From: an uncultured virus (IMG/VR IMGVR_UViG_3300032334_001252)
Lineage: Duplodnaviria; Heunggongvirae; Uroviricota; Caudoviricetes
Strand: one strand, 5' to 3'
Length of the DNA: 20,000 nt
IMG/VR virus record: IMGVR_UViG_3300032334_001252
The first letter of the stretch is position 1; each line of letters starts with the position of its first letter. The position numbers and the translations under genes were made by a program. Positions 4,171-19,941 of the stretch are shown here, piece by piece. The notes under the pieces were generated by a model that was not told where the DNA came from, ran no database searches, and saw nothing but the letters and a program-made list of their open reading frames with translations.

Positions 4171-4371
4171 ATGGCTCAACCAAACTATACAGAAGAACTA
4201 GAACGCATAGTAATAGAAGTACTACTGCCTGTTTTTGAACAACACGTTAAAGAACGAGGATATCCTATTATGCAAACGGAAATTCCTCCAGCTTATCTAC
4301 AAAAGTTTAAAACTAAGAAAGTTCTACCTAGGCTGCTTATGCCTAAAGAAAAATTAGACTTGAACCAATAA
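4171..4371 (+). CDS. hypothetical protein
   Basis: 66-aa ORF with AGGA RBS after promoter. Confidence 0.7.
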   Translation: MAQPNYTEELERIVIEVLLPVFEQHVKERGYPIMQTEIPPAYLQKFKTKKVLPRLLMPKEKLDLNQ

Positions 4372-4388
4372 TTAAATTATTGTATAAT
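4360..4388 (+). promoter_or_regulatory. sigma70-type promoter
   Basis: TTGAAC-17 nt-TATAAT; ATG only 6 nt downstream, so probably a leaderless mRNA. Confidence 0.7.
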
Positions 4389-4394
4389 ATAAAT

Positions 4395-4949
4395 ATGAAA
4401 CCAAATTACTTTTACATTAATAACATCTTAACAAAAGAAGATTGTGAACTAATAGTTGCAAAACAATTAGAACAAAACTTTGAAAAAGGTACTACTAGTA
4501 CAAAACAACAATCAATTTTTGAAAGAAATAGTTTTGTTAATTGGGTATTACCACAAACAATTTTAGACCCGTTAATGTATAGAATAATGGACGCGGTTAG
4601 ATTTCACACAATGAATGAGTTTGAATTTCCTGTTGGACAAGGAGAAATAATTCAATTTGGGGAATATGGATTTTTACAACATTATAGAGAACACATAGAC
4701 TGTAACATAACTAAACCTTATAGATTTATAAGTGCTACAGTACAACTTACTGACCCTAAACAGTATTTAGGGGGTAATTTACAAATAAAAAGAGGACCAT
4801 ATGATTGGGAAACTACACCTAAACAACAAGGTATTTTAACAGTATTTCCAAGTATGTTACCTCACAGGGTTACCCCAGTTTTATGGGGTAAAAGGCACTC
4901 ACTAGCACTATGGTTTGATATTGCTAGAGAGTATGAAGATGTTCAATAG
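4395..4949 (+). CDS. 2OG-Fe(II) oxygenase (prolyl-4-hydroxylase/PKHD-like)
   Basis: HID...YLGGNL...FPS..PHRVTPV..G.R.SL..W facial triad. Confidence 0.85.
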   Translation: MKPNYFYINNILTKEDCELIVAKQLEQNFEKGTTSTKQQSIFERNSFVNWVLPQTILDPLMYRIMDAVRFHTMNEFEFPVGQGEIIQFGEYGFLQHYREHIDCNITKPYRFISATVQLTDPKQYLGGNLQIKRGPYDWETTPKQQGILTVFPSMLPHRVTPVLWGKRHSLALWFDIAREYEDVQ

Positions 4950-6562: not shown

Positions 6563-6574
6563 ATAAATATTGAC

Positions 6575-6603
6575 TTGATTTCTTCAACAAATAATAGTAT
6601 AAT
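6575..6603 (+). promoter_or_regulatory. sigma70-type promoter
   Basis: TTGATT-17 nt-TATAAT. Confidence 0.75.
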
Positions 6604-6624
6604 ATATACTTATTGGAGAAAACT

Positions 6625-6915: not shown

Positions 6916-7533
6916 ATGCAAACAATAGTAAATGACTATTTATATAGTTTTCAATTAGATAATATTGATAATAATGCACTATTCAACAAGTGTTTAGTTA
7001 TTGAAGATATTATTATTCAAACCACACCGGCTGCTGAAAAAGGTTGGTATGGTAATCTTACTAGTGCTAAAAATCAAAGTTATAATTTATTTACTTTTCC
7101 AGTAAAAGAGTTACACGAACTTTATCAAGCAATGGTAAAAAATATTACACCACTACTAGATAAAGATACCAGCTATGTATTAAAAAGCTGGATGAATGTA
7201 TATCGTAATGGTGATAAAGTAAGTTGGCATCAACATTGGCCTCCTAAAGATAAAGTATGGCATGGTTTTTATTGTGTAAATGTTGGCAAAAATGAAAGTG
7301 CTACCAATTATAAAATACCAGGAATTAAAGAAATTATTAATGTTCCTAGTATTGATGGATTATTGGTAGTAGGCAAAAGCGATGACGATAAACACAGCAG
7401 TACAGAGTGGCAAGGTAATAAACCACGTATTACATTAGCATTTGATATTGTTCCTATGTGGGCAGTAAATCCTAATGAAAATACAGATATGCATCATTTA
7501 CAACTATACCACTATATACCATTTAAAGCATGA
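6916..7533 (+). CDS. divergent putative 2OG-Fe(II) oxygenase (TIGR02466-like fold)
   Basis: SWMNVY...WHQH...HGFYCV...GLLVV...HSS...RITLAFD. Confidence 0.6.
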   Translation: MQTIVNDYLYSFQLDNIDNNALFNKCLVIEDIIIQTTPAAEKGWYGNLTSAKNQSYNLFTFPVKELHELYQAMVKNITPLLDKDTSYVLKSWMNVYRNGDKVSWHQHWPPKDKVWHGFYCVNVGKNESATNYKIPGIKEIINVPSIDGLLVVGKSDDDKHSSTEWQGNKPRITLAFDIVPMWAVNPNENTDMHHLQLYHYIPFKA

Positions 7534-7820: not shown

Positions 7821-8824
7821 CACACACATTTAATCAAAACATTCAACGTATCGGTTTTGCTTGTAAAATCCAAGATAGTACAGGCAAAGCTGACCCTAAA
7901 CTGAACACAAAGACCACAACACTAACTTGGTTAAACAACCAACCACGCGATAAAAGTGTGCAAAAGCTAGAATTAATCATGGAAAGCAACTGCAATGCCA
8001 TGAAACAGCAAATGCACTGGCTAGCGAAACAGCCTAACAATCAGCGTATGTTTCGCATTAGTAGTGATCTTTTTCCTGCGTATACCCATGACGACTGGAC
8101 ATGGTGGTATTACGAACAAAATCAAATCAAATATTTAGAAAAACACTTAGCAGAAGTTGGCGAGTTGGCTAGACAGAATGACATTCGTCTTAGCTTCCAT
8201 CCTGGTCAATTCTGCGTATTAGCATCGGAAAATGATGGAATTGTTGATAACAGTATCAGGGAGTTTGAGTATCATACTGACGTGGCCAGGTATATGGGCT
8301 ATGGCAAATCTTTTCAAGACTTTAAGTGCAATGTACACATCGGTGGTAAACGCGGACCTGCTGGCATTCAAAGTGCTCTAAAGAAACTTAGCACTGAAGC
8401 ACGTAATATCTTAACTATCGAAAATGCCGAGTATACATGGGGTCTAGACGCTAGTCTAGAACTTATGCTTGACTGTGCCTTAGTCTTAGACATTCATCAC
8501 CACTGGATTGCTAGTGGTGAATATATTACGCCAGAGGATGACCGTTTTAAAGCTGTTATCGAATCATGGCGTGGTGTACGTCCTGCCATGCACTATAGCG
8601 TTAGTCGCGAAGATGTAATCGTAGATCATGACCCTAACACAAAGCCTAATCTAATGGAACTGAAAGCTCAGGGTTTTACGTCGACTAAACTACGAGCACA
8701 CAGTGAATACTACTGGAATGAGGCAAGTAATAATTGGGCCTTGACATTTTTGCCTTATGCTGATATAATGTGTGAATCAAAACAAAAAAACTTGGCAAGT
8801 CAACAACTAGCCAATATGTTATAA
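7811..8824 (+). CDS. uvsE: UV damage endonuclease (UvsE/UVDE)
   Basis: RIGFAC, FRISSDLFP, RLSFHPGQF.VLAS, TIEN, LVLDIHHH, HYS, AHS, DIMCESKQK. Confidence 0.92.
   Translation: MALTHTFNQNIQRIGFACKIQDSTGKADPKLNTKTTTLTWLNNQPRDKSVQKLELIMESNCNAMKQQMHWLAKQPNNQRMFRISSDLFPAYTHDDWTWWYYEQNQIKYLEKHLAEVGELARQNDIRLSFHPGQFCVLASENDGIVDNSIREFEYHTDVARYMGYGKSFQDFKCNVHIGGKRGPAGIQSALKKLSTEARNILTIENAEYTWGLDASLELMLDCALVLDIHHHWIASGEYITPEDDRFKAVIESWRGVRPAMHYSVSREDVIVDHDPNTKPNLMELKAQGFTSTKLRAHSEYYWNEASNNWALTFLPYADIMCESKQKNLASQQLANML
8741..8769 (+). promoter_or_regulatory. perfect-consensus sigma70 promoter inside uvsE, upstream of the main tRNA array
   Basis: TTGACA-17 nt-TATAAT plus extended -10 TG. Confidence 0.85.
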
Positions 8825-8956: not shown

Positions 8957-9031
8957 GGGCTGATAGTGATAATGGGAGCACAGTGGCTTTGCAAGCCTCG
9001 GGTGGGAGTTCGATCCTCCCTCGGTCCACCA
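8957..9031 (+). tRNA. tRNA-Ala(UGC)
   Basis: G3:U70 pair, TT-TGC-AA, ACCA. Confidence 0.92.
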
Positions 9032-9047
9032 ATTTAAAAGGAAAATT

Positions 9048-9170
9048 ATGAAAACACGAAAACCTAGAAACCACATTATAATTGCTTTAATGAAACGCAA
9101 TGGTAGTGGTTCACATAAAAAAACCACAAAGCAGCTTCGTGGTAAATGGAAGCGCATAACGGACGTATAA
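9048..9170 (+). CDS. 40-aa basic peptide, weakly ArfA-like
   Basis: AAGGA RBS; MKTRKPRNHIIIALMKRNGSGSHKKTTKQLRGKWKRITDV; stop lies inside tRNA-Lys. Confidence 0.6.
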   Translation: MKTRKPRNHIIIALMKRNGSGSHKKTTKQLRGKWKRITDV

Positions 9171-9235
9171 CTTAACGGCTAAAGTAACTGGCTTTTAACC
9201 AGTAAATCAGAGTTCGATTCTCTGTGCGTCTACCA
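9161..9235 (+). tRNA. tRNA-Lys(UUU)
   Basis: GGACGTA/TGCGTCT, CT-TTT-AA, ACCA. Confidence 0.92.
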
Positions 9236-9311
9236 TATAAAAACACATTGTCCTAGGCTGTGACCTAGTCCATCAGAAGTCCTTGTAGACAGAAGCAGTG
9301 TGTTTCTATAT
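9236..9311 (+). ncRNA. stem-closed RNA cassette 1 (unknown)
   Basis: TATA-A-AAACACATTG / CAGTGTGTTT-C-TATA stem enclosing CTAGG-CTGTGA-CCTAG hairpin. Confidence 0.5.
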
Positions 9312-9403
9312 GGAAAGTAATGCAGTGGGGTTGGTCCCGCGACTGGCCTTGAAAACCAGGTTCTCCTAACGGGGATGGGGTTCGACTCCTCTGCTTTCCG
9401 CCA
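9312..9403 (+). tRNA. tRNA-Ser(UGA), 8/4-type
   Basis: 8-bp acceptor GGAAAGTA/TGCTTTCC, 4-bp T-stem, long variable arm, G73, CCA. Confidence 0.85.
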
Positions 9404-9404
9404 T

Positions 9405-9480
9405 GCAACTTTAGCTGATGTGGTCATAGCGGTGGTCTGAAGAACCATTGAACTAGGTTCGATTCCTAGAGGTTGCACCA
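9405..9480 (+). tRNA. tRNA-Phe(GAA)
   Basis: GCAACTT/AGGTTGC, CT-GAA-GA, ACCA. Confidence 0.92.
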
Positions 9481-9485
9481 TATAC

Positions 9486-9573
9486 GGAAGATTACCCAAG
9501 CGGTTACGGGAGCAGTTTGCTAAACTGTCGTTGAGAAATCGGCGCATTGGTTCGAATCCAATATCTTCCGCCA
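9486..9573 (+). tRNA. tRNA-Ser(GCU)
   Basis: GGAAGAT/ATCTTCC, TT-GCT-AA, long variable arm, GCCA. Confidence 0.95.
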
Positions 9574-9584
9574 GTATTTTTAGG

Positions 9585-9657
9585 TGTGACCTTAGTGTAA
9601 CGGTTAGCACCCGAGATTGTGATTCTTTTAGTATGGGTTTGATTCCCATAGGTCACC
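9585..9657 (+). tRNA. tRNA-His(GUG), U-1, no encoded CCA
   Basis: GTGACCT/AGGTCAC, C73, TT-GTG-AT; T-loop TTTGATT and 3' CCT are atypical. Confidence 0.8.
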
Positions 9658-9679
9658 CCTAAGGGTATTAAGGAAAAGT

Positions 9680-10000
9680 ATGGATAGCTTATACACACAA
9701 AAATTACAACAGTATACTGAAGCACTACAAACAATTATTGAAAAAGCAGAAACTTTTAAAACTGGTGACAGTGTTAGCTGGGGTAGTAGTGGTGGTAAAG
9801 CACGCGGCAAAATTACTAAAATTATTAAAAATGGTAGCGAACAAGTACCTAACAGTAGTTTCAAAATAACTGGTACACCCGACGATCCTGCAGCACTAAT
9901 TCGTGTTTATCGCCCCGATAGTGATGGCAAATATAAACCTACAGATACTATTGTAGGACACAAAACTAGTTCACTAACAAAAATATCAGGATTAAATTAA
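9680..10000 (+). CDS. DUF2945/Hva1 Tudor-like domain protein
   Basis: FKTGDSVSW.SSGG..RGKITKI...TPDDPA..I...VGHK.SSL. Confidence 0.65.
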   Translation: MDSLYTQKLQQYTEALQTIIEKAETFKTGDSVSWGSSGGKARGKITKIIKNGSEQVPNSSFKITGTPDDPAALIRVYRPDSDGKYKPTDTIVGHKTSSLTKISGLN

Positions 10001-10002
10001 AT

Positions 10003-10302
10003 ATGCCGTGTATTAAATGTAGTAACGGCAAATATAAATATGGCGAACATGGCAATTGTCAGTTTGATACGCTAGCCTCCTGCAAAGCTGCAGCAGCGGC
10101 TATACATATTCCAAAGGAAGAGAGTATGAAACCTAAAAAGAAACCTCCACTTTCGGCTATTAAACCTGAAGCTGGACCACATGGACCAATCCCAGAAGGA
10201 AAAGATATGCAACCTATTCAACCAGTTCAACCTATGAACCCACATCATGATGCTACTTGCCAATGTGCTAGTTGCAAAGGTATGTATCCTAAATATAAGT
10301 AA
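10003..10302 (+). CDS. hypothetical Cys/Pro-rich protein
   Basis: 99-aa ORF; internal AAGGA+ATG (MKPKKK) may be a second start. Confidence 0.6.
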   Translation: MPCIKCSNGKYKYGEHGNCQFDTLASCKAAAAAIHIPKEESMKPKKKPPLSAIKPEAGPHGPIPEGKDMQPIQPVQPMNPHHDATCQCASCKGMYPKYK

Positions 10303-10310
10303 GGAATTTT

Positions 10311-10526
10311 ATGAAACTTAAACCAACAAATGTTCGTGAACCACAGCTAACCGCAATTGGTAAACCTTATGACGAAGGATTTGCTGAAATTCGTGACCCT
10401 AAAACTGGTGCTGATGTAGGCGATATTCTTCCTGGAAGTATTGAGCTTTATCCAGTAGATATGCCTGATCGTGATGGTAGTACTACTCACCAAGGCGATA
10501 TGGGTCGACTAGGTAAGTCAGAATAA
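10311..10526 (+). CDS. hypothetical protein
   Basis: AAGGA RBS, 71 aa. Confidence 0.7.
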   Translation: MKLKPTNVREPQLTAIGKPYDEGFAEIRDPKTGADVGDILPGSIELYPVDMPDRDGSTTHQGDMGRLGKSE

Positions 10527-10530
10527 TATT

Positions 10531-10568
10531 AGCCCCCATAGTCGTGTTAAGGCTCAAAAAGACGCGAC
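10531..10568 (+). promoter_or_regulatory. putative H-type pseudoknot in 5' leader
   Basis: S1 AGCC/GGCT, S2 GTCGTGTT/GACGCGAC, A-rich linker CAAAAA. Confidence 0.45.
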
Positions 10569-10599
10569 CTTTCTATCACACACATCACAAGGAAATTAT

Positions 10600-10827
10600 A
10601 TGAACCCGTTTGAAATTCGTGCCGAAATGCTTAAAATGGCACAAGATTATTTGACAAAACAACAAGAAATCAATACTGATTTTGCCATGCAAACTTTTCA
10701 GCAATTAGTTGCTCAAGGTAAGAAAACTGCAGACGAGTGGCAAACTTATGCTCCTAAAATGTACACATTTGAAGATGTACTAAAAGAAGCTAATAAGTTG
10801 TATGGATTTGTCAAAGATGCTAAGTAA
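10600..10827 (+). CDS. hypothetical helical protein (MNPFEIR family)
   Basis: AAGGA RBS preceded by CA-rich tract. Confidence 0.75.
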   Translation: MNPFEIRAEMLKMAQDYLTKQQEINTDFAMQTFQQLVAQGKKTADEWQTYAPKMYTFEDVLKEANKLYGFVKDAK

Positions 10828-10924
10828 ACTATATAGCGGCATAGTCCGTTTTATTGAAATTATGCAAGACGTTCAAGCTGAGCGTGCTAAAGCCTATGCC
10901 AAATATGGAAGGGTTTCAGAATGA
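10817..10924 (+). CDS. 35-aa hypothetical protein
   Basis: Hand-translated MLSKLYSGIVRFIEIMQDVQAERAKAYAKYGRVSE; overlaps both neighbours (ATGA coupling at 3' end). Confidence 0.5.
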   Translation: MLSKLYSGIVRFIEIMQDVQAERAKAYAKYGRVSE

Positions 10925-11094
10925 CAGCTATAACCGAAATGGTAGAACGATTAAAAGAAATTTTAGAGTGTAAACCTTACAGTATGGATCAGTTTATTGC
11001 TGATAATGATCCTAAGGATCATAAAGATGTTCAAAGACTAGAAGAACAGTGGATGCAATATCACAATCGTAAATTTTTTAGCACAAATTATTAA
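10921..11094 (+). CDS. 57-aa hypothetical protein
   Basis: Hand-translated MTAITEMVERLKEIL...FIADNDPKDHKDVQRLEEQW... Confidence 0.6.
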   Translation: MTAITEMVERLKEILECKPYSMDQFIADNDPKDHKDVQRLEEQWMQYHNRKFFSTNY

Positions 11095-11099
11095 TATAT

Positions 11100-11175
11100 C
11101 GCGGGGTACGTCAGCGGCAGACTGTCAGGCTCATAACCTGGAGGACGTGGGTTCGAGTCCCACCCACCGCAACCA
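11100..11175 (+). tRNA. initiator tRNA-fMet(CAU)
   Basis: C1:A72 mismatch, CGCGGGG start, CT-CAT-AA; extra A in 3' acceptor strand. Confidence 0.85.
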
Positions 11176-11222
11176 ATGGTAGGCTTTAACTAGCTGAAGC
11201 AGGTGAAAGCCCTGTCCTAAAC

Positions 11223-11269
11223 TAAGGTTTAGGTTTGCTAACAAAAAGCAAACCTAAGCCTTATTTTTT
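11223..11269 (+). terminator. long hairpin terminator / processing stem
   Basis: 17-bp TAAGGTTTAGGTTTGCT/AGCAAACCTAAGCCTTA followed by T6. Confidence 0.7.
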
Positions 11270-11282
11270 CTGGAGAATAACA

Positions 11283-11513
11283 ATGAGTGATGGTGGAAAA
11301 GGTTCAAAAGCAAGACCCTTAACTGTATCAAATGAAGAGTATGCTAATCGTTGGGATGCTATTTTTGGTACAGATCAAAAAACAAAACAAGAACGTGCAT
11401 TAGATGAAATGGTTCGTATTAGCCAAGAAATGGGTTTGTACGATGAGTTTGAAGATAAACCTACTAGAAATAACAAAGAGACACAAACAGTAAAGATTGA
11501 GTATGTCAAGTAA
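11283..11513 (+). CDS. hypothetical protein (MSDGGKGSKARP family)
   Basis: ATG 11283 after GGAG RBS. Confidence 0.7.
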   Translation: MSDGGKGSKARPLTVSNEEYANRWDAIFGTDQKTKQERALDEMVRISQEMGLYDEFEDKPTRNNKETQTVKIEYVK

Positions 11514-11838
11514 GTTTAAAGAATTGTACTATCAATATACTATTGAAGTATATCAAACTATTTGCGTATTTTTATTTGTTGTAATAGTAATGCTATATGG
11601 TGTTATAGAGTTTAAAACTGGAGTTATGGAAGGTTATAAATCTACACTAGCACTTTTAAAAACACGCAGTGATGAACAAATTAGAGAAATCGCTGTGTTA
11701 CAAGAGCAGTACAAATATCAGACTCAAGAGATTGTTTTGCTAAAAGCTAAAGTAGCGCACGCAGACAATACAATGCGTAAAGACATTGAAGATTTAAAAC
11801 AACAACAAAATCCAGTAGTTAAACATCTTAGAAAATAA
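11503..11838 (+). CDS. membrane-anchored coiled-coil protein
   Basis: Hydrophobic ICVFLFVVIVMLYGVI then heptad-rich region. Confidence 0.65.
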   Translation: MSSKFKELYYQYTIEVYQTICVFLFVVIVMLYGVIEFKTGVMEGYKSTLALLKTRSDEQIREIAVLQEQYKYQTQEIVLLKAKVAHADNTMRKDIEDLKQQQNPVVKHLRK

Positions 11839-11912
11839 ATCTCCTTGGTGTAATGGCAGCACTGCAGTCTCCAAAACTGTAAGTGGGAGTTCGAGTCTCT
11901 CAGGGGATGCCA
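11839..11912 (+). tRNA. tRNA-Trp(CCA)
   Basis: ATCTCCT/AGGGGAT, CT-CCA-AA, GCCA. Confidence 0.92.
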
Positions 11913-11922
11913 AAATTTTCAT

Positions 11923-11951
11923 TTGATTTCATAATTGAATTTCTGTATAAT
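11923..11951 (+). promoter_or_regulatory. sigma70-type promoter
   Basis: TTGATT-17 nt-TATAAT. Confidence 0.75.
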
Positions 11952-11960
11952 TGATATATT

Positions 11961-12047
11961 GGGTAACGAGAAGCATTGGTGACTTCAGCAGACTGTAAAT
12001 CTGTCGCCTCTAGAGGCAACGGGGTTCGATTCCCTGGTTACCCACCA
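11961..12047 (+). tRNA. tRNA-Tyr(GUA)
   Basis: GGGTAAC/GTTACCC, CT-GTA-AA, long variable arm, G at position 8. Confidence 0.92.
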
Positions 12048-12053
12048 AATAAC

Positions 12054-12138
12054 GCGAGTATGGTGGAATAGGTAGACACAAGAGACTTAAAATCTCTCGC
12101 CGCAAGGTGTATCGGTTCGACTCCGATTACTCGTACCA
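12054..12138 (+). tRNA. tRNA-Leu(UAA)
   Basis: GCGAGTA/TACTCGT, CT-TAA-AA, long variable arm. Confidence 0.95.
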
Positions 12139-12154
12139 AATTTGAAAGTTGACA

Positions 12155-12766
12155 ATGAAAGTAGATGGATTGTGGGCAACACCAATATATCACAGTAGAT
12201 TAGATAACCAAAGTATACTTTTAGTACAAGAAGAATTTAAAAAAGTATATGATAGTTATATATTAAATGCTACATTTAATAAAAGATCAGATTGGGAAAA
12301 CAGAAGCCATAGTTTAAGCGATATTAGTTTTAATAGTAACTTTATTGAAGAATTTAATTTAATTCATTTTAAAAAAGTTATTGAAATTGCTTTAAAACAA
12401 TATATGTTTAGTATTAATCAACCAACTGATTACAAGTATAAATTATATGAATCTTGGATGACATTAACAAAACATAATGAATTTGCTATTCCACACAATC
12501 ATCCGCCTGCGGATATTTCAGGCGTATATTACTATCAAACAAATGGTAATGATGGAGATATTACTTTTATAGCACCTCCTTTGGGAGGTAGCTGGGTACC
12601 AAAATCAGGAAGCTTACTAGCTAATATTAGTTATAAACCTGAAGTAGGCAGATTATTATTGTTCCCAGGTTGGTTAACACATTATGTAAAAGCAAATGAA
12701 ACATATAATAATAGAGTTAGTGTTTCATTTAATATTAAGTTTCACAGAGAAAAATCGGTCTTATAG
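12155..12766 (+). CDS. putative 2OG-Fe(II) oxygenase (TIGR02466-like)
   Basis: SWMT...HNH...ISGVYY...PEVGRLLLFPGWLTHYV...RVSVSFN; stop inside tRNA-Asp. Confidence 0.8.
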   Translation: MKVDGLWATPIYHSRLDNQSILLVQEEFKKVYDSYILNATFNKRSDWENRSHSLSDISFNSNFIEEFNLIHFKKVIEIALKQYMFSINQPTDYKYKLYESWMTLTKHNEFAIPHNHPPADISGVYYYQTNGNDGDITFIAPPLGGSWVPKSGSLLANISYKPEVGRLLLFPGWLTHYVKANETYNNRVSVSFNIKFHREKSVL

Positions 12767-12832
12767 TGTTAGCGGTAAGCACGCGAGCCTGTCACGCTTG
12801 TAGGAGGGATTCGAATTCCCTTAAGACCGCCA
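12757..12832 (+). tRNA. tRNA-Asp(GUC)
   Basis: GGTCTTA/TAAGACC, CT-GTC-AC, GCCA. Confidence 0.93.
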
Positions 12833-12837
12833 AATAT

Positions 12838-12913
12838 TCCTCAGTAGCACAGCGGTAGTTGCACTTGACTGTTAATCAAGTTGTCCGTGGTTCGATCCCA
12901 CGCTGAGGAGCCA
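12838..12913 (+). tRNA. tRNA-Asn(GUU)
   Basis: TCCTCAG/CTGAGGA, CT-GTT-AA, GCCA. Confidence 0.95.
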
Positions 12914-12988
12914 GGTAATGTAGGACAATGGTAGTCTACCTCCTTCATACGGAGATTGTTAGTGGTTCAAATCCACTCATTACCACCA
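12914..12988 (+). tRNA. tRNA-Met(CAU), probably elongator
   Basis: GGTAATG/CATTACC, TT-CAT-AC, ACCA. Confidence 0.85.
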
Positions 12989-12991
12989 AGT

Positions 12992-13217
12992 TTTGTTAAA
13001 GTGTTAGCAAGAGAATGTCACGCTAGTAAGGTTTCTTCGAAGGACTGAGCTAGTAAAAGGTTGCGGGTTCGATTCCCGACTGATCGCCGTTTACGGTGGC
13101 GGTATACAGGTGGCGTATCAACTGGACTAGTATCCCAAGTAATGTACCCCCACCCGTCCGGACTATATACTCGGTGTGAATGGTTTCGATAAATCAGGGC
13201 GAAACTACTTTAACAAA
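12992..13217 (+). ncRNA. ~230-nt structured RNA with permuted tRNA-like domain (unknown family)
   Basis: 11-bp closing stem TTTGTTAAAGT/ACTTTAACAAA, GC-rich, no ORF, several helices, T-loop TTCGATT. Confidence 0.7.
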
Positions 13218-13226
13218 TTCAATTGT

Positions 13227-13300
13227 TGGGGTATAGTGTAATGGTAGCACTACGGATTTTGATTCCGTCAGTTGGGGTTCGAGTCCCTATACCCCTGCCA
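13227..13300 (+). tRNA. tRNA-Gln(UUG)
   Basis: TGGGGTA/TACCCCT, TT-TTG-AT, GCCA. Confidence 0.93.
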
Positions 13301-13301
13301 C

Positions 13302-13378
13302 ACGATCTTAGCACAACGGATTAGTGCACTTCGCTACGAACGAAGAGGTTAGGAGTTCAAATCTCTTAGATCGTACCA
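13302..13378 (+). tRNA. tRNA-Arg(ACG)
   Basis: ACGATCT/AGATCGT, CT-ACG-AA, ACCA. Confidence 0.93.
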
Positions 13379-13380
13379 TT

Positions 13381-13455
13381 AGCCTTATAGCTCAGAGGCA
13401 GAGCAATCGCTTGATAAGCGATAGGTCGACATCTCGGAATTGTCTAAGGCTACCA
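13381..13455 (+). tRNA. tRNA-Ile(GAU), atypical T-arm
   Basis: AGCCTTA/TAAGGCT, TT-GAT-AA; T-arm GACA-TCTCGGAAT-TGTC. Confidence 0.85.
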
Positions 13456-13467
13456 ATTTTTATTTAA

Positions 13468-13543
13468 GTCCCGTTCATCTAGCGGCCAAGGATAGTGCCC
13501 TTTCACGGCATTCACACCAGTTCGAATCTGGTACGGGACTCCA
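13468..13543 (+). tRNA. tRNA-Glu(UUC)
   Basis: GTCCCGT/ACGGGAC, CT-TTC-AC, CCA. Confidence 0.93.
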
Positions 13544-13552
13544 CTTATTACT

Positions 13553-14023
13553 ATGAAAACTTTTAATATTGAAGAAGTAAAAAATTATATTCGTGCTCAA
13601 AGTCCTGAAACTAAAATTTATTTAGGTGCAGATAGCGAGCGAATTAATATTAAAGGTATCTGGTATGCAGACTATACACTAGCCATTGTTGTTCATATTA
13701 ATGGCAACAGTGGCTGTAAAATTTTTGGAGACGTACACAGAGAGCGTGATTACGATCAAAAGTCTAATAAACCTAGTATGCGACTAATGCAAGAAGTTTA
13801 TAAAGTAGGCGATCTATTTCATGAATTAGCAGATGTATTAGAAGATAGATATGTAGAAGTACACTTAGACATTAACCCTGACGAAAAACACAAATCAAGT
13901 GCAGTAGTGCAACAAGCTGTAGGATATATCAAAGGTACTTGCAATATTGATGCGCTAGTAAAACCACGAGCATTTGCAGCAAGCTATGCTGCAGACCGAT
14001 TAAAATTTGTACTTGCAAACTAG
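13553..14023 (+). CDS. RNase H-like YkuK (DUF458) family protein
   Basis: KIYLGADS, RLMQEV, EVHLDINP, KP.AFAASYAAD. Confidence 0.8.
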   Translation: MKTFNIEEVKNYIRAQSPETKIYLGADSERINIKGIWYADYTLAIVVHINGNSGCKIFGDVHRERDYDQKSNKPSMRLMQEVYKVGDLFHELADVLEDRYVEVHLDINPDEKHKSSAVVQQAVGYIKGTCNIDALVKPRAFAASYAADRLKFVLAN

Positions 14024-14024
14024 T

Positions 14025-14171
14025 ATGAAAACAATTACAATACAACTTGACATTAATTTAGTTAAACAATTAAAATTTATAGCTAAACAGCGAAAACTTA
14101 CACTAAGCGAATTAGTAAACGAAATACTTAAACTTAAACTACAGGAGTTAGAAGATGACCGACCGTTTTGA
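14025..14171 (+). CDS. ribbon-helix-helix (CopG/Arc-like) small protein
   Basis: Hand-translated MKTITIQLDINLVKQLKFIAKQRKLTLSELVNEILK... Confidence 0.6.
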   Translation: MKTITIQLDINLVKQLKFIAKQRKLTLSELVNEILKLKLQELEDDRPF

Positions 14172-14379
14172 TTTAGAACAACAAATTATGCAGTGCTGGA
14201 CGATTACTGAAGACATTAAGTTATTGAATACTTATGTACTGGAAGGTAAGATCGAAGGTGGAGAAATGACTCAGGATGAGATTTCAAACTACCTCTTGGG
14301 ATTAGAGTCGATCTATAACCTAAAATTTGAACAAATGTTTCACACATTCAGTACACTAGTTCACGACAAGAAAATTTAA
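14155..14379 (+). CDS. hypothetical phage protein (DRFDLEQQIM family)
   Basis: AGGAG RBS, 74 aa. Confidence 0.75.
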   Translation: MTDRFDLEQQIMQCWTITEDIKLLNTYVLEGKIEGGEMTQDEISNYLLGLESIYNLKFEQMFHTFSTLVHDKKI

Positions 14380-14380
14380 T

Positions 14381-14456
14381 GTACGCGTGACCCGAATGGT
14401 TAGGGCTCGGATTGCAAATCCGCACTATGCAGGTTCAAGTCCTGTCGCGTACTCCA
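14381..14456 (+). tRNA. tRNA-Cys(GCA)
   Basis: GTACGCG/CGCGTAC, TT-GCA-AA, U73, CCA. Confidence 0.93.
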
Positions 14457-14459
14457 TTT

Positions 14460-14532
14460 AGTCAGTTCCCAGATGACTTTAAAAATGTGGGCTGCTCAAT
14501 GGCCAACGCAAAGAGCATAAGGTAACAGTTGG
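14460..14532 (+). ncRNA. putative tandem pseudoknot RNA
   Basis: AGTCA/TGACT + CCCA/TGGG; TGCTC/GAGCA + CCAAC/GTTGG. Confidence 0.45.
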
Positions 14533-14536
14533 ATTT

Positions 14537-14611
14537 GCCGACTTAGCACAGTGGTAGTGCAATCGCCTTGTAAGCGATAGGTCATCAGTTCGAATCCGAT
14601 AGTCGGCACCA
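14537..14611 (+). tRNA. tRNA-Thr(UGU)
   Basis: GCCGACT/AGTCGGC, CT-TGT-AA, ACCA. Confidence 0.95.
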
Positions 14612-14625
14612 TATAGAAAGTTTAT

Positions 14626-14754
14626 ATGATCGGTAATTTAATCTTAGTTGCTATAATTATAGGACTGCATGGTTATTGGATTTATGCAATAGCTACCTAT
14701 GACTGGTCTAAACATGATGAAGATAAAACTACATACGACAATGATATGTGGTAA
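14626..14754 (+). CDS. 42-aa single-pass membrane peptide
   Basis: Hand-translated MIGNLILVAIIIGLHGYWIYAIATYDWSKHDEDKTTYDNDMW. Confidence 0.55.
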   Translation: MIGNLILVAIIIGLHGYWIYAIATYDWSKHDEDKTTYDNDMW

Positions 14755-14755
14755 C

Positions 14756-14863
14756 TATAACAAAACACACTACTTGCCACTTAATAAATATACGCGGAGT
14801 ATCGTACGTAAACCTTCCGCGGGTAACTAGGTCGCACCTAGCATAGGTAGTGTGTTTTCTATA
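14756..14863 (+). ncRNA. stem-closed RNA cassette 2 (unknown)
   Basis: AAAACACACTAC/GTAGTGTGTTTT stem; inner CGCGGA/TCCGCG and CTAGGT-CGC-ACCTAG. Confidence 0.5.
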
Positions 14864-14947
14864 TTTAAACACTTTGGTCAGCACTGTGGGAAGCGCAGAT
14901 GGACAACACTAGAACAAGGTTCGAATCCAAACTAGGGTGTTTAAATA
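14862..14947 (+). ncRNA. stem-closed RNA cassette 3 with T-loop sequence (unknown)
   Basis: 17-bp TATTTAAACACTTTGGT/ACTAGGGTGTTTAAATA; inner CTGTG/CGCAG hairpin and GGTTCGAATCC. Confidence 0.5.
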
Positions 14948-14948
14948 T

Positions 14949-15275
14949 GGTTGTATGAAATAGACAGAAAAGCGTTGTGGACGCGGGTGCAAATCCCGCC
15001 AGCTCCACCATAAAGTATATTGAAGCGATCGATAGCTGTGGGACGCGTTCCGACTTTAAGTGCGATATACTTTTTGATGGGGCTGTTATAGATTCGACAT
15101 GGCGACAAGTACAAAAGTGGACAACTCGGAAAAGTGGAATCCGTTAGGACTGGGGAATCCTGGTCGCAGAACACACCAAAAGTAAACGCAAACGACTCAC
15201 AGTTCGCATTGGCAGCCTAAACGCTGACTAGGGTTTTGTCAAGTTTTCCTCGTAACAGAATAAACTTGACCCTAA
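14949..15275 (+). ncRNA. ssrA: circularly permuted (two-piece) tmRNA; tag (A)NDSQFALAA
   Basis: T-arm and CAGCTCC-ACCA (ends 15010) precede GGGGCTG..ATTCGAC (starts 15079); G3:U70; tag ORF 15188-15220. Outer ends approximate. Confidence 0.92.
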
Positions 15276-15293
15276 ATTTAACAAGGTAACACA

Positions 15294-15884
15294 ATGACAG
15301 AAGATATTAAAATTACAACACCTGCAGAGTATTTTACTAAAAATACTGGCAATCAATATGAGTTTTACCTTAGCGGTCAAATTGAGTCTGCTGATAATTA
15401 TATTCAATGGTTTGATGTAATCAGAAATGCTAGGGAACAGGACACAGTAAAAATCTATATTAATAGCCCTGGTGGTGACTTGTATACTGCACTACAATTT
15501 TTGCGTGTAATGGGTGAGTGTGAAGCGCACTTGGTCACCAGTGTTGAAGGTTGTTGCATGAGTGCAGCTACCATGATATTTTTAAGTGGTCATGAGTATC
15601 AAGTAACTCCACACAGTTTATTTATGTTTCACAATTACAGTGGTGGCGTATTTGGTAAAGGCGGTGAACAATACGATCAAATTCAGTACGAACGTGCTTG
15701 GTCTGAAAAGTTTATGAACGAAGTCTACAAAGACTTCTTAACCACTGACGAAATCAAGTCTATGTTAGATAACAAAGATATTTGGATGACGTCGGAACAA
15801 GTATTAGAACGTATCGAAAAGGTAATGAAAAAGTTACATGAAGAACAACAAGCTATGGAAGCTGCTAGCCAAATCGCTGGGTGA
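15294..15884 (+). CDS. clpP: ClpP-like serine protease (peptidase S14)
   Basis: IYINSPGGD, CMSAATMIFLSG (Ser), FMFHN (His), KDIWMT (Asp). Confidence 0.88.
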   Translation: MTEDIKITTPAEYFTKNTGNQYEFYLSGQIESADNYIQWFDVIRNAREQDTVKIYINSPGGDLYTALQFLRVMGECEAHLVTSVEGCCMSAATMIFLSGHEYQVTPHSLFMFHNYSGGVFGKGGEQYDQIQYERAWSEKFMNEVYKDFLTTDEIKSMLDNKDIWMTSEQVLERIEKVMKKLHEEQQAMEAASQIAG

Positions 15885-16898: not shown

Positions 16899-16925
16899 CA
16901 ACCCAGCTTTAAGCTGGGTTTTTTG
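16899..16925 (+). terminator. intrinsic terminator ending the tRNA region
   Basis: AACCCAGC-TTTAA-GCTGGGTT followed by T-tract. Confidence 0.85.
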
Positions 16926-16942
16926 TTTGTTGAAATATTCAC

Positions 16943-16971
16943 TTGAATCAACAAACTGTTTTTGATATAAT
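16943..16971 (+). promoter_or_regulatory. sigma70-type promoter
   Basis: TTGAAT-17 nt-TATAAT with extended -10 TG. Confidence 0.8.
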
Positions 16972-17007
16972 ATATGTTCTGAAACAAACTTTAACAGGAA
17001 ACACAAC

Positions 17008-19616: not shown

Positions 19617-19891
19617 TGGATGACAATATTCACTATAACAAACTAATCGAAGAAAACATGGAAAAAGGTTTTCAAGTTAGATTAGTAGTAAATGAATTTA
19701 GGGATGTTCAGTATATTCAGTTACGAAAATATTTCCTTACCTATGAAGGCGATTGGCAAGCTAGTCGTGAGGGTATCTCAATCCCTGCTAGTACTGAGAA
19801 TATCTATAGTCTGCTGGACGGATTATTTGATATTTGCAGTAAAGCAGAGGGTGAAGATATTATCAGACACTACGCTGAAAAATTGTCTTGA
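19616..19891 (+). CDS. PC4/p15-like ssDNA-binding protein
   Basis: VNEFRDVQYIQLRKYF...GDW...REGISIP. Confidence 0.75.
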   Translation: MDDNIHYNKLIEENMEKGFQVRLVVNEFRDVQYIQLRKYFLTYEGDWQASREGISIPASTENIYSLLDGLFDICSKAEGEDIIRHYAEKLS

Positions 19892-19916
19892 TCTTTAGAC
19901 CCTAAACTGGTATAAT
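19888..19916 (+). promoter_or_regulatory. sigma70-type promoter
   Basis: TTGATC-17 nt-TATAAT. Confidence 0.75.
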
Positions 19917-19941
19917 ATATCTTCTTTAAAATAAAATCACT

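Follow-up and report, generated by a model that had tools for sequence, protein, structure and literature searches.

The 20,000-nucleotide (nt) stretch of DNA analyzed here (the window) belongs to an uncultured virus of the Caudoviricetes (IMG/VR record IMGVR_UViG_3300032334_001252) and holds the transfer RNA (tRNA) and transfer-messenger RNA (tmRNA) array of this phage, with 24 tRNA genes and a circularly permuted, two-piece tmRNA gene, all annotated on the + strand by ARAGORN. The permuted gene is also matched by the Rfam model tmRNA_permuted (RF04321, 111.7 bits, 14949-15220). Set among these genes are five elements whose ends can pair with each other: three short cassettes, designated cas1, cas2 and cas3, the segment between the two pieces of the tmRNA gene (the intervening segment) and a longer element that we call the 12989 RNA. 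All of them are co-oriented with the tRNAs, lie inside the array and are bounded by tRNA processing sites (Table 1).

A first-pass annotation of this DNA had proposed that these elements form a single family, in which a constant scaffold presents variable cargo and is released by processing of the flanking tRNAs. All five elements are present in the sequence, and each is closed in the manner described. The termini shared by cas1 (9236-9311) and cas2 (14756-14863), 5' TATAA(C)AAA(A)CACA and 3' GTGTGTTT(T)CTATAT, were confirmed, the inverted-repeat arms of cas2 lying at 14762-14773/14847-14858. For cas3 (14862-14947) the closing stem is a perfect 12-nt inverted repeat (14861-14872/14937-14948), the 12989-13226 RNA is closed by the arms TTGTTAAAGT/ACTTTAACAA, and the intervening segment is enclosed by arms at 15000-15020/15065-15085 that are 86% complementary, its hairpin (15011-15078) being closed by AAAGTATATTG / CGATATACTTT. 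Membership in one family, however, was not borne out. A covariance model of the family to which cas2 belongs (R1, described below), run at E≤10 on the window and on 80 related loci, matched only elements in the window and in two of those loci (L001 and L013); hence cas1, cas3 and the intervening segment of the window are not R1 members. A CTAGG...CCTAG hairpin is indeed present in both cas1 and cas2, but its sharing is a coincidence, since the hairpin covaries freely in the cas2 family and cas1 does not match the model of that family. Judged from sequence, what is common to the five elements is the style of closure only, together with the stem sequence in the case of cas1 and cas2.

An Rfam scan, which had also been proposed, matched tRNA and tmRNA families and none over the cassettes: with Rfam 15, at the gathering score and at E≤1, nothing overlapped 9236-9311, 14756-14947 or 12989-13226.

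Table 1. Location of the features discussed in the text. The last column compares the predicted fold of each element with 200 dinucleotide shuffles (z-score; shuffles as good).
Feature	Coordinates	Strand	Evidence and remarks	Fold
tRNA-Lys(UUU)	9161..9235	+	ARAGORN; Rfam tRNA, 66.7 bits	
cas1, 76-nt cassette	9236..9311	+	near-invariant clamp TATAAAAACACATT / AGTGTGTTTCTATAT, one A.C mismatch	-2.7; 2/200
Type-II tRNA, probably tRNA-Ser(UGA), unannotated	9312..9404	+	Rfam tRNA-Sec model, 37.1 bits, weak (gathering score 47)	
12989 RNA, 238-nt structured RNA	12989..13226	+	between tRNA-Met and tRNA-Gln; T-arm-like GGGTTCGATTCCC	-0.7; 51/200, alone not significant
12989 RNA closing helix	12993-13002 / 13207-13216			
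12989 RNA apical-loop palindrome GTCCGGAC	13156-13163			
cas2, R1 family member	14760..14860	+	covariance model R1, 97.8 bits	-3.8; 0/200
cas2 closing helix	14762-14775 / 14845-14858			
cas2 invariant single strand GCCACTTAAT	14776-14785			
cas2 hairpin 1	14793-14799 / 14815-14821		loop palindrome CGTACG at 14803-14808	
cas2 hairpin 2	14827-14831 / 14837-14841			
cas3, 86-nt cassette	14862..14947	+	closing helix, inner hairpin, T-loop-like GGTTCGAATCC; directly 5' of tmRNA acceptor piece	-3.9; 1/200
tmRNA acceptor piece, 3' end CCA	14949..15010	+	Rfam RF04321; ARAGORN permuted tmRNA	
tmRNA intervening segment	15011..15078	+	between acceptor-piece CCA and coding-piece 5' end	-2.4; 5/200
tmRNA coding piece, tag ANDSQFALAA	15079..15290	+	ARAGORN, Rfam; 95.6% identity to L001	

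The R1, cas3 and 12989 RNA families

By comparative analysis, the region 14760-14860 is a member of a conserved RNA family of about 100 nt, termed R1. The family was collected with a pattern derived from its core, which yielded 57 IMG/VR loci; one hit, L096, was a coding-region false positive and was dropped. R1 elements consist of a closing helix of 14-22 bp (lengths taken from minimum-energy folds), an invariant unpaired GCCACTTAAT...ATA.AT, hairpin 1 (G.GGAGT-loop-ACCTTCC.C), the sequence GGGT and a variable hairpin 2, with more than 30 invariant positions, part of which are fixed by the search pattern. In a MAFFT alignment of 16 members, which was not fitted to any model, 99.6% of the cells that should pair do so and 14 of the 31 pairs have changed on both sides, a result equaled by none of 500 shuffles. 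The covariance model built from this alignment identified 57 matches, 45 of them distinct, in which 98.4% of cells are paired, as against 75.1% in shuffles and 39-50% when the pairing partners are slid along the alignment. In the resulting model-fitted alignment 22 of 31 pairs have changed on both sides, including all 16 pairs of the closing helix and all 5 of hairpin 2. The absence of covariation and of stable RNAs had been named beforehand in the first-pass annotation as what would speak against such RNAs; of the two, covariation is present in the cas2 family and in the cas3 and 12989 RNA families described below.

Several pairs in R1 are kept as G.U wobbles (17-71, GU in 45/45; 35-68, UG in 44/45; 41-62, GU in 45/45; 15-125, UG in 24/36). 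Such pairs would be C.A mismatches on the opposite strand, and the predicted R1 fold is therefore specific to the + strand. The counterpart of cas2 in L001 stands directly after tRNA-Cys and directly before the tmRNA acceptor piece, and carries compensatory changes in both inner hairpins.

R1 elements are found repeatedly at tmRNA genes. On 56 loci plus the window, ARAGORN placed a tmRNA beside or around R1 in 35 of the 57 cases, and 6 more come from a test for an acceptor stem that closes around it. In a rough sorting of contexts, in which many loci are duplicates (57 hits, 45 distinct), R1 forms the intervening segment inside a permuted tmRNA in 22 of 57 places (two of which, L092 and L109, are doubtful on inspection), lies directly 5' of the acceptor piece in 12 and 3' of the coding piece in 1. 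The remaining 22 places include the window, where R1 precedes the acceptor piece, from which cas3 separates it, and several loci with an ARAGORN tmRNA just upstream; the rest of this class lies between tRNAs. The R1 core pattern occurs at 57 loci in IMG/VR, whereas 596 Gb of prokaryote genomes contain it once, in a metagenome-assembled genome (MAG) contig of 1,963 nt. By this comparison R1 is a phage-only family, and an origin from a bacterial tmRNA intervening segment was rejected on the strength of that single match. A 6-nt complementarity between the invariant strand of R1 and tmRNA, noted by eye, was judged to be within chance.

The cas3 and 12989 RNA families are, on the same kind of evidence, two further conserved RNA families. 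Homologs of cas3 were identified in 17 IMG/VR loci. In 11 distinct 86-nt sequences, 11 of the 21 predicted pairs have changed on both sides, and the family carries a T-loop-like motif, GGTT[CT]GAATCC. Among 14 distinct contexts, cas3 elements constitute the tmRNA intervening segment in 4, stand directly 5' of the acceptor piece in 6 (the window included) and are located elsewhere in 4. The cassette is cleanly missing from the closest relative, L001, as an indel.

The 12989 RNA has homologs in 13 IMG/VR loci, amounting to 10 distinct sequences with that of the window, and in 9 of the 10 it follows a tRNA CCA. Eleven of its 59 predicted pairs have changed on both sides across these 10 sequences, and in one relative (L264) the closing helix has been wholly swapped for other arms while pairing is kept. 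In R1, cas3 and the 12989 RNA, selection acts on the RNA structure. Identification of this element as a permuted tmRNA or a tRNA was rejected, as Rfam gave no match at E≤1 and the fold predicted by RNAalifold is complex and could not be assigned to a known class. Contigs of relatives from lake metagenomes skip the module formed by tRNA-Met and the 12989 RNA (12914 to 13226) and have 4 other letters instead, a weak observation based on one contig in each of two runs from one study at a likeness of at least 85%.

The intervening segment of the window has no homolog in 317 fetched loci, and in L001 its place (15011-15078) is taken by a different segment of 122 nt. It was therefore rejected as a conserved cargo. 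Inspection by eye revealed three 6-nt palindromes (CGATCG, ATCGAT and ACGCGT) in its 68 nt.

Clamp, cargo and apical loops

The ends of cas1 define a second, much more widespread arrangement. A near-invariant clamp, TATAAAAACACA...TGTGTTTCTATAT, was detected in at least 121 IMG/VR loci using a pattern of the termini shared by cas1 and cas2. These loci contain 126 cassettes, 94 of them distinct, and all counts of cassettes and cargos out of 126, 94 or 58 given here are among the matches listed. Between the two arms of the clamp the interior varies freely: the cargos fall into 58 BLAST clusters in one clamp, which bears out the earlier proposal of a constant scaffold with variable cargo. In cas1 the cargo spans 45-50 nt and forms two small hairpins. 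Cargo G+C is 0.49, whereas the window as a whole has 0.37 and its open reading frames (ORFs) range over 0.28-0.37.

Conservation extends into flanks that were not part of the search pattern. Of the 126 cassettes, 105 are preceded by CCATATA and 105 are followed by GGT, while CCATAT[AG] stands just upstream of 111. In the window, the ACCA tail of the tRNA upstream of cas1 (9232-9235) and the adjoining TATA (9236-9239) are complementary to TATATGG at 9307-9313, and inspection finds ACCATATA complementary to TATATGGT. From this complementarity we infer that the helix runs over the ACCA tail of the upstream tRNA, for a length of about 17-18 bp with one fixed A.C mismatch. As a control, the clamp pattern was run against 596 Gb of prokaryote genomes, where it produced 27 matches, only 1 of them with the hallmark flank; the shared termini lie well outside chance expectation. 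That single hallmark cassette (L284) is on a contig of 2.8 kb assigned to a Polynucleobacter MAG; it is either phage DNA placed in the wrong bin or a clue to the host. In 5 complete related genomes, a shorter pattern matched four (175-365 kb), with 1-2 matches judged to be cassettes, and did not match the fifth (167 kb).

The position of the cassettes is defined by the tRNA genes. Of 126 cassettes, 93 start within 3 nt of the 3' end of a co-oriented tRNA (72 at tRNA-Lys(UUU) and 11 at tRNA-Gln), and 44 end within 3 nt of the next tRNA, which is tRNA-Met in 30 cases. The 3' boundary of cas1 was set by the first base of the tRNA at 9312-9404, a gene missed by ARAGORN, whose sequence can be read as having a CTTGAAA anticodon loop and an extended variable arm, the grounds for calling it a probable tRNA-Ser. 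Another tRNA missed by ARAGORN lies at 13381-13452 (Rfam, 51.9 bits), with an anticodon loop TTGATAA that reads as Ile(GAU). The clamp was considered as an intrinsic terminator and rejected, since none of the 10 terminator-like sites reported by a terminator scan is a cassette.

Cargos are swapped between slots and between phages. Behind tRNA-Lys(UUU) there are 37 cargo clusters, 16 of them in the exact Lys-to-Met slot, and 6 clusters occur behind more than one kind of tRNA. The cargo of cas1 recurs with 95-97% identity over all 76 nt in four other IMG/VR contigs (L183, L242, L159 and L231), where the preceding gene is tRNA-Glu, tRNA-Thr or another cassette. In one pair of loci, L177 and L253, the upstream flanks are 98% and the downstream flanks 96% identical and the clamps are the same, and the cargo between them is unrelated; L253 also contains one additional tRNA-like gene. 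In the cassette that follows downstream (480-560 in L177), the two loci differ by the complete replacement of a 4-bp inner hairpin that is nevertheless still paired (TAGC-AGTT-GCTA versus GAGA-GTAA-TCTC), in DNA that is otherwise 96-100% identical. This clustered change may reflect either micro-conversion or targeted diversification.

Three of the RNA families have an apical loop in which the sequence varies and self-complementarity is kept, a feature of kissing-loop dimerization hairpins. Among distinct R1 hairpin-1 loops, 32 of 35 contain a perfect palindrome of 6-10 nt, whereas 2000 shuffles gave 5.1 such loops on average and never more than 13. Nineteen different palindromes are represented, that of the window being CGTACG. 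All 10 sequences of the 12989 RNA carry a palindrome of 6 nt or more at one fixed position, and in 9 of them it reaches 8 nt or more (shuffle mean 0.94, maximum 5). The third family is a clamp cargo (cargo cluster 0) with 7 distinct members and covarying hairpins, one loop of which reads CCCGGG, TCCGGA or GCCGGC. A mini-hairpin fails to explain these palindromes, because their middle bases are also self-complementary. Covarying loop palindromes in three families thus suggest symmetric kissing homodimers.

Surrounding genes and related contigs

Proteins encoded near the array include ThyX, a UvdE-like endonuclease, Hsp20, several 2OG-Fe(II) oxygenases and a ClpP-like protease. Four oxygenase-like ORFs lie within the 20 kb (1398-1988, 4380-4949, 6916-7533 and 12149-12766), one of them a weak match and one inside the tRNA array; the latter is skipped in a metagenome contig of a relative that joins 12139 to 12757. 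The query for the 80 related IMG/VR loci was the ClpP-like protein, and only one of these loci, L001, is a close relative (87% protein identity). No record in INPHARED covered 80% or more of the region when 9000-15400 was compared by blastn with 50,697 phage records, and the best 40 of 655 rows are short, tRNA-sized matches on annotated tRNA genes, hypothetical-protein features or unannotated DNA. Runs with small word shares are labelled lake, freshwater metagenome or plain metagenome, which is only a hint at the habitat.

On the + strand the arrays are bracketed by promoter-like sites (8741-8769, 11923-11951) and terminator-like sites (11223-11263, 16900-16920), all of them consensus matches only. 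The first of these promoter-like sites, before tRNA-Pro, matches the consensus perfectly. A direct repeat in five + strand copies (4350-4392, 6565-6607, 11913-11955, 16933-16975 and 19878-19920) also resembles sigma-70-type promoters (TTGA...17 nt...TATAAT plus ATAT). The region after tRNA-Met, 11172-11267, contains a small hairpin followed by a 17-bp hairpin with a T run, a strong terminator-like site, and part of it is 95% identical in L001.

Three spacers or small ORFs of the arrays were noted in addition. The 80-nt spacer between tRNA-Cys and tRNA-Thr (14457-14536) is conserved at 95% identity in L085 and has no stable fold (z +0.6). Between tRNA-Thr and cas2 lies a 42-codon ORF (14626-14754) with a hydrophobic N-terminal half and no counterpart at that place in L001. 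In two related loci (L013, 5310-5421; L070, 12311-12424) a conserved spacer of 112-114 nt between tRNA-Phe and tRNA-Asp presents a T-arm, a 7-bp end helix, a 3' CCA and an oversized interior, and could represent an atypical tRNA-like RNA or else a tRNA carrying an insertion.

Interpretation of the cassettes and comparison with known systems

We consider it probable, at roughly 60%, that these cassettes encode end-clamped small RNAs, which tRNA processing sets free and which recombination at the cassette ends shuffles. The cassettes would be genes for small structured non-coding RNAs, read from the + strand within long tRNA/tmRNA precursors, co-transcription being suggested by the promoter-like and terminator-like sites around the arrays. 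Each fills the gap from the CCA of a tRNA-like gene to the first base of the next gene, and the spacer between two tRNAs and the intervening segment of a permuted tmRNA gene are equivalent slots of this kind. Since cassettes fill these gaps exactly, tRNA processing would release them, presumably through RNase P acting at the downstream +1 and 3'-end maturation of the upstream tRNA; the placement proposed earlier thus holds, and the release it was thought to bring about follows as a prediction. The 14-22-bp helix may be a site of RNase III cutting. Once freed, the cargo would owe paired, exonuclease-resistant ends to the long AU-rich terminal helix, which in the commonest type would also pair the ACCA tail of the upstream tRNA with a downstream TGGT. 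The cargos would be independent RNAs, among them at least three conserved families (R1, the cas3 family and the 12989 RNA family), and the self-complementary apical loops of R1, the 12989 RNA and one further cargo family would lead to loop-loop (kissing) homodimers. The identical cassette ends of 14-18 nt, finally, would offer short homology through which cargos could recombine between slots and phages.

Several observations weigh against this reading. The invariance of the clamp was imposed by the search pattern, and other cassettes of the same phage group carry other stems. The 98.4%-paired R1 alignment was fitted to the model, and the invariance of R1 hairpin 1 and of the single-stranded core is partly due to ascertainment, because both were fixed by the search pattern. 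Near-identical phages with different cargo are represented by one pair only (both flanks at least 96% identical), there being 5 pairs with both flanks alignable. Folded on their own, the cargos are only weakly better than shuffles (mean z of -0.47 over 58 clusters, with 16/58 below -1 and 21/58 above 0); many may be unstructured, and in our reading some cargos are functional RNAs whereas others may be inert. Palindromes show no general enrichment among cargos (51 of 94, versus a shuffle mean of 49.3) and were rejected as a general cargo property, the enrichment being limited to the fixed loops of three families; in these loops, too, a kissing dimer and a palindromic DNA site cannot be told apart from sequence alone. 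No processing enzyme or partner protein was found in the phages either: neither an RNase III (PF14622) nor a Ro/TROVE gene (PF05731) is present in any of the 5 complete related genomes, so that host enzymes or another protein would be required. An ORF within the tRNA array (13553-14023) encodes an RNase H-like protein (PF04308, E 1.6e-16), whose homolog lies about 2.4 kb from a cassette in 1 of the 5 complete relatives. As it is present in that relative only, it was rejected as a partner candidate.

The weak folding of the cargos also fits a view of the cassettes as transient processing spacers, in which the helix organizes or insulates the precursor, for instance as a site for RNase III or a mask over the upstream CCA, and the cargo is filler that is degraded. 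The 58 unrelated cargos in one clamp agree with this view, as do the lack of homologs of the intervening segment of the window, with a different one in L001, and the description of permuted-tmRNA intervening segments as absent from mature tmRNA in PMC11915505. Filler, however, would be expected neither to be conserved nor to covary in its inner hairpins, whereas R1, cas3 and the 12989 RNA keep their sequence and inner structure in phages whose ClpP-like proteins share only 55-65% identity, R1 retains a long invariant unpaired stretch and a loop palindrome at a specific position, and the cargos depart from the genome in G+C. We regard spacers as an unlikely explanation, if a serious one. The inverted-repeat ends with TA on each side, the clean presence/absence indels and the occurrence of one cargo in differing contexts might instead point to miniature mobile elements acting at the DNA level, with terminal inverted repeats and TA duplication, moved by a transposase or homing enzyme and folding as RNA only incidentally; the contigs of lake-metagenome relatives that join across whole modules, such as 12914 to 13226, lend weak support. 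But the start of 93 of 126 cassettes within 3 nt of a co-oriented tRNA 3' end, the strand specificity conferred on the helices by G.U pairs and the covariation of inner hairpins, which DNA mobility does not need, all argue otherwise. The same ends moreover enclose unrelated cargos, the opposite of what copies of one element would show, and no transposase was seen beside the cassettes, although no search was aimed at one. Mobile elements of this kind are, in our judgment, most improbable.

The clamp could also be a specific protein handle in the style of Y RNAs, its helix bound by a host or phage protein and its cargo serving to tether or present something. The clamp sequence itself is conserved across the 58 cargos, including the fixed A.C mismatch, and several cargos have a T-arm-like motif, as do Y RNAs that mimic tRNA (PMC4201824). 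Given that the search pattern accounts for this invariance, and that the closing helix of R1 covaries at 16/16 pairs and hence has no sequence requirement in that family, a handle is improbable; neither the Ro/TROVE search nor Rfam, which gave no Y RNA or YrlA match, nor the RNase H-like gene of the window's array, confined to 1 of 5 complete relatives, provides a protein or RNA that would fit it. A further possibility is suggested by tRNA-Lys(UUU), a known target of host anticodon nucleases. If the cargos were anti-defense decoys or guides in an arms race, the hypervariable slot behind this tRNA would be explained, and 72 of the 126 clamp cassettes, with 37 cargo clusters, do follow it; near-identical phages with differing cargo, and the hairpin of L177 and L253 that was replaced and yet remained paired, would be in keeping with such a conflict. 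The link to tRNA-Lys, however, may merely reflect a clamp that travels with the flank of that tRNA, given the ascertainment by pattern, no cargo resembles the tRNA-Lys anticodon arm on inspection, and no defense or counter-defense gene is linked to the cassettes. Decoys or guides are accordingly very unlikely in our view.

End-clamped RNAs released from tRNA precursors would have their nearest known counterparts in T4. RNA C and RNA D sit in the T4 tRNA cluster and are excised together with the tRNAs, and the cassettes are likewise non-tRNA RNAs inside a tRNA array. The two small RNAs of this T4-type phage have been described as "RNAs of yet unknown functions" (PMC9697503). No sequence relation of the cassettes to them was seen in the best 40 of the 655 blastn rows obtained from 50,697 phage records, and the cassettes differ from RNA C and RNA D in being many per array, in their shared clamp, cargo swapping and loop palindromes, and in residing inside permuted tmRNA genes. 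The segment 15011-15078 is a permuted-tmRNA intervening segment in the usual sense, and R1 and cas3 occupy that position in other phages. The tmRNA database paper reports, besides the absence of the segment from mature tmRNA, one such segment holding a tRNA-Ala gene and another holding a repetitive element; a conserved covarying RNA family that occurs in the segment and also beside it or between tRNAs is not mentioned in the available text of that paper (PMC11915505).

Shuffling of modules through short conserved repeats is known from the promoter-early stem-loops (PeSL), between which recombination takes place among close T4-type phages (PMC2839356). PeSL, however, consist of a sigma-70-like promoter and a terminator hairpin around protein genes, whereas the cassette repeats are the two arms of one RNA helix around an RNA cargo, are part of a tRNA transcript and are not scored as terminators. 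Phage and prophage RNAs of the GOLLD and ROOL classes, whose function is unknown, are often located near tRNA islands and self-assemble by covarying intermolecular kissing loops (PMC12286853). They differ in being far larger (many GOLLD RNAs exceed 800 nt), in forming large cages and in having Rfam models, none of which matches here; the present RNAs measure 76-238 nt and would form dimers. In retroviruses, dimer-initiation hairpins display a self-complementary hexamer in the apical loop that is flanked by unpaired bases and varies between strains, but these are parts of animal-virus genomic RNA, and here a small phage RNA is predicted from sequence comparison to dimerize. Y RNAs and YrlA combine a terminal helix of their 5' and 3' ends with a variable or tRNA-like module; cas3 and several cargos have a terminal helix and a T-loop-like motif that might correspond to such a module, and the differences are a closing helix without conserved sequence in R1, the lack of Ro/TROVE in the 5 complete relatives and the absence of any Rfam match. 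With miniature inverted-repeat elements the cassettes have terminal inverted repeats in common, but not the 58 unrelated interiors, the co-orientation at tRNA ends or the strand-specific helices. RNase III substrates comprise about two turns of largely regular double-stranded RNA, and the closing helices here extend over 14-22 bp, those of the clamp type over about 17-18 bp with one A.C mismatch. The literature searched, mostly outside subscription journals, contained no description of these cassettes or families, and the combination seen here is found in none of the closest known systems (T4 RNA C/D, the tmRNA segment, PeSL and GOLLD/ROOL).

The usual view of phage tRNA arrays is that they assist translation, and the DNA separating the tRNAs goes unconsidered. 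The gaps of the arrays analyzed here hold a second, diverse cargo, with at least three conserved structured RNA families outside Rfam and dozens of swappable ones, and the segment of permuted tmRNA genes regarded as discarded can itself be a conserved RNA. The covarying loop palindromes amount to a testable prediction of natural small-RNA homodimers, which are rare. A constant clamp with variable cargo suggests a route for the exchange of RNA genes between phages, as well as a natural blueprint for producing small RNAs of any kind out of a tRNA precursor, and the families provide a comparative handle on the role of the non-tRNA RNAs in T4-type tRNA clusters. The most far-reaching form of this interpretation, which we hold to be quite unlikely, is a recombination-shuffled library of end-clamped small RNAs in every CCA-to-+1 gap, that of the tmRNA gene included, several of them acting as homodimers via self-coevolving loop palindromes, with the tRNA-Lys(UUU) slot made hypervariable by conflict with host defense. 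If true, such a library would correspond, at the level of RNA, to a gene-cassette system that is expressed by way of the tRNA processing machinery.

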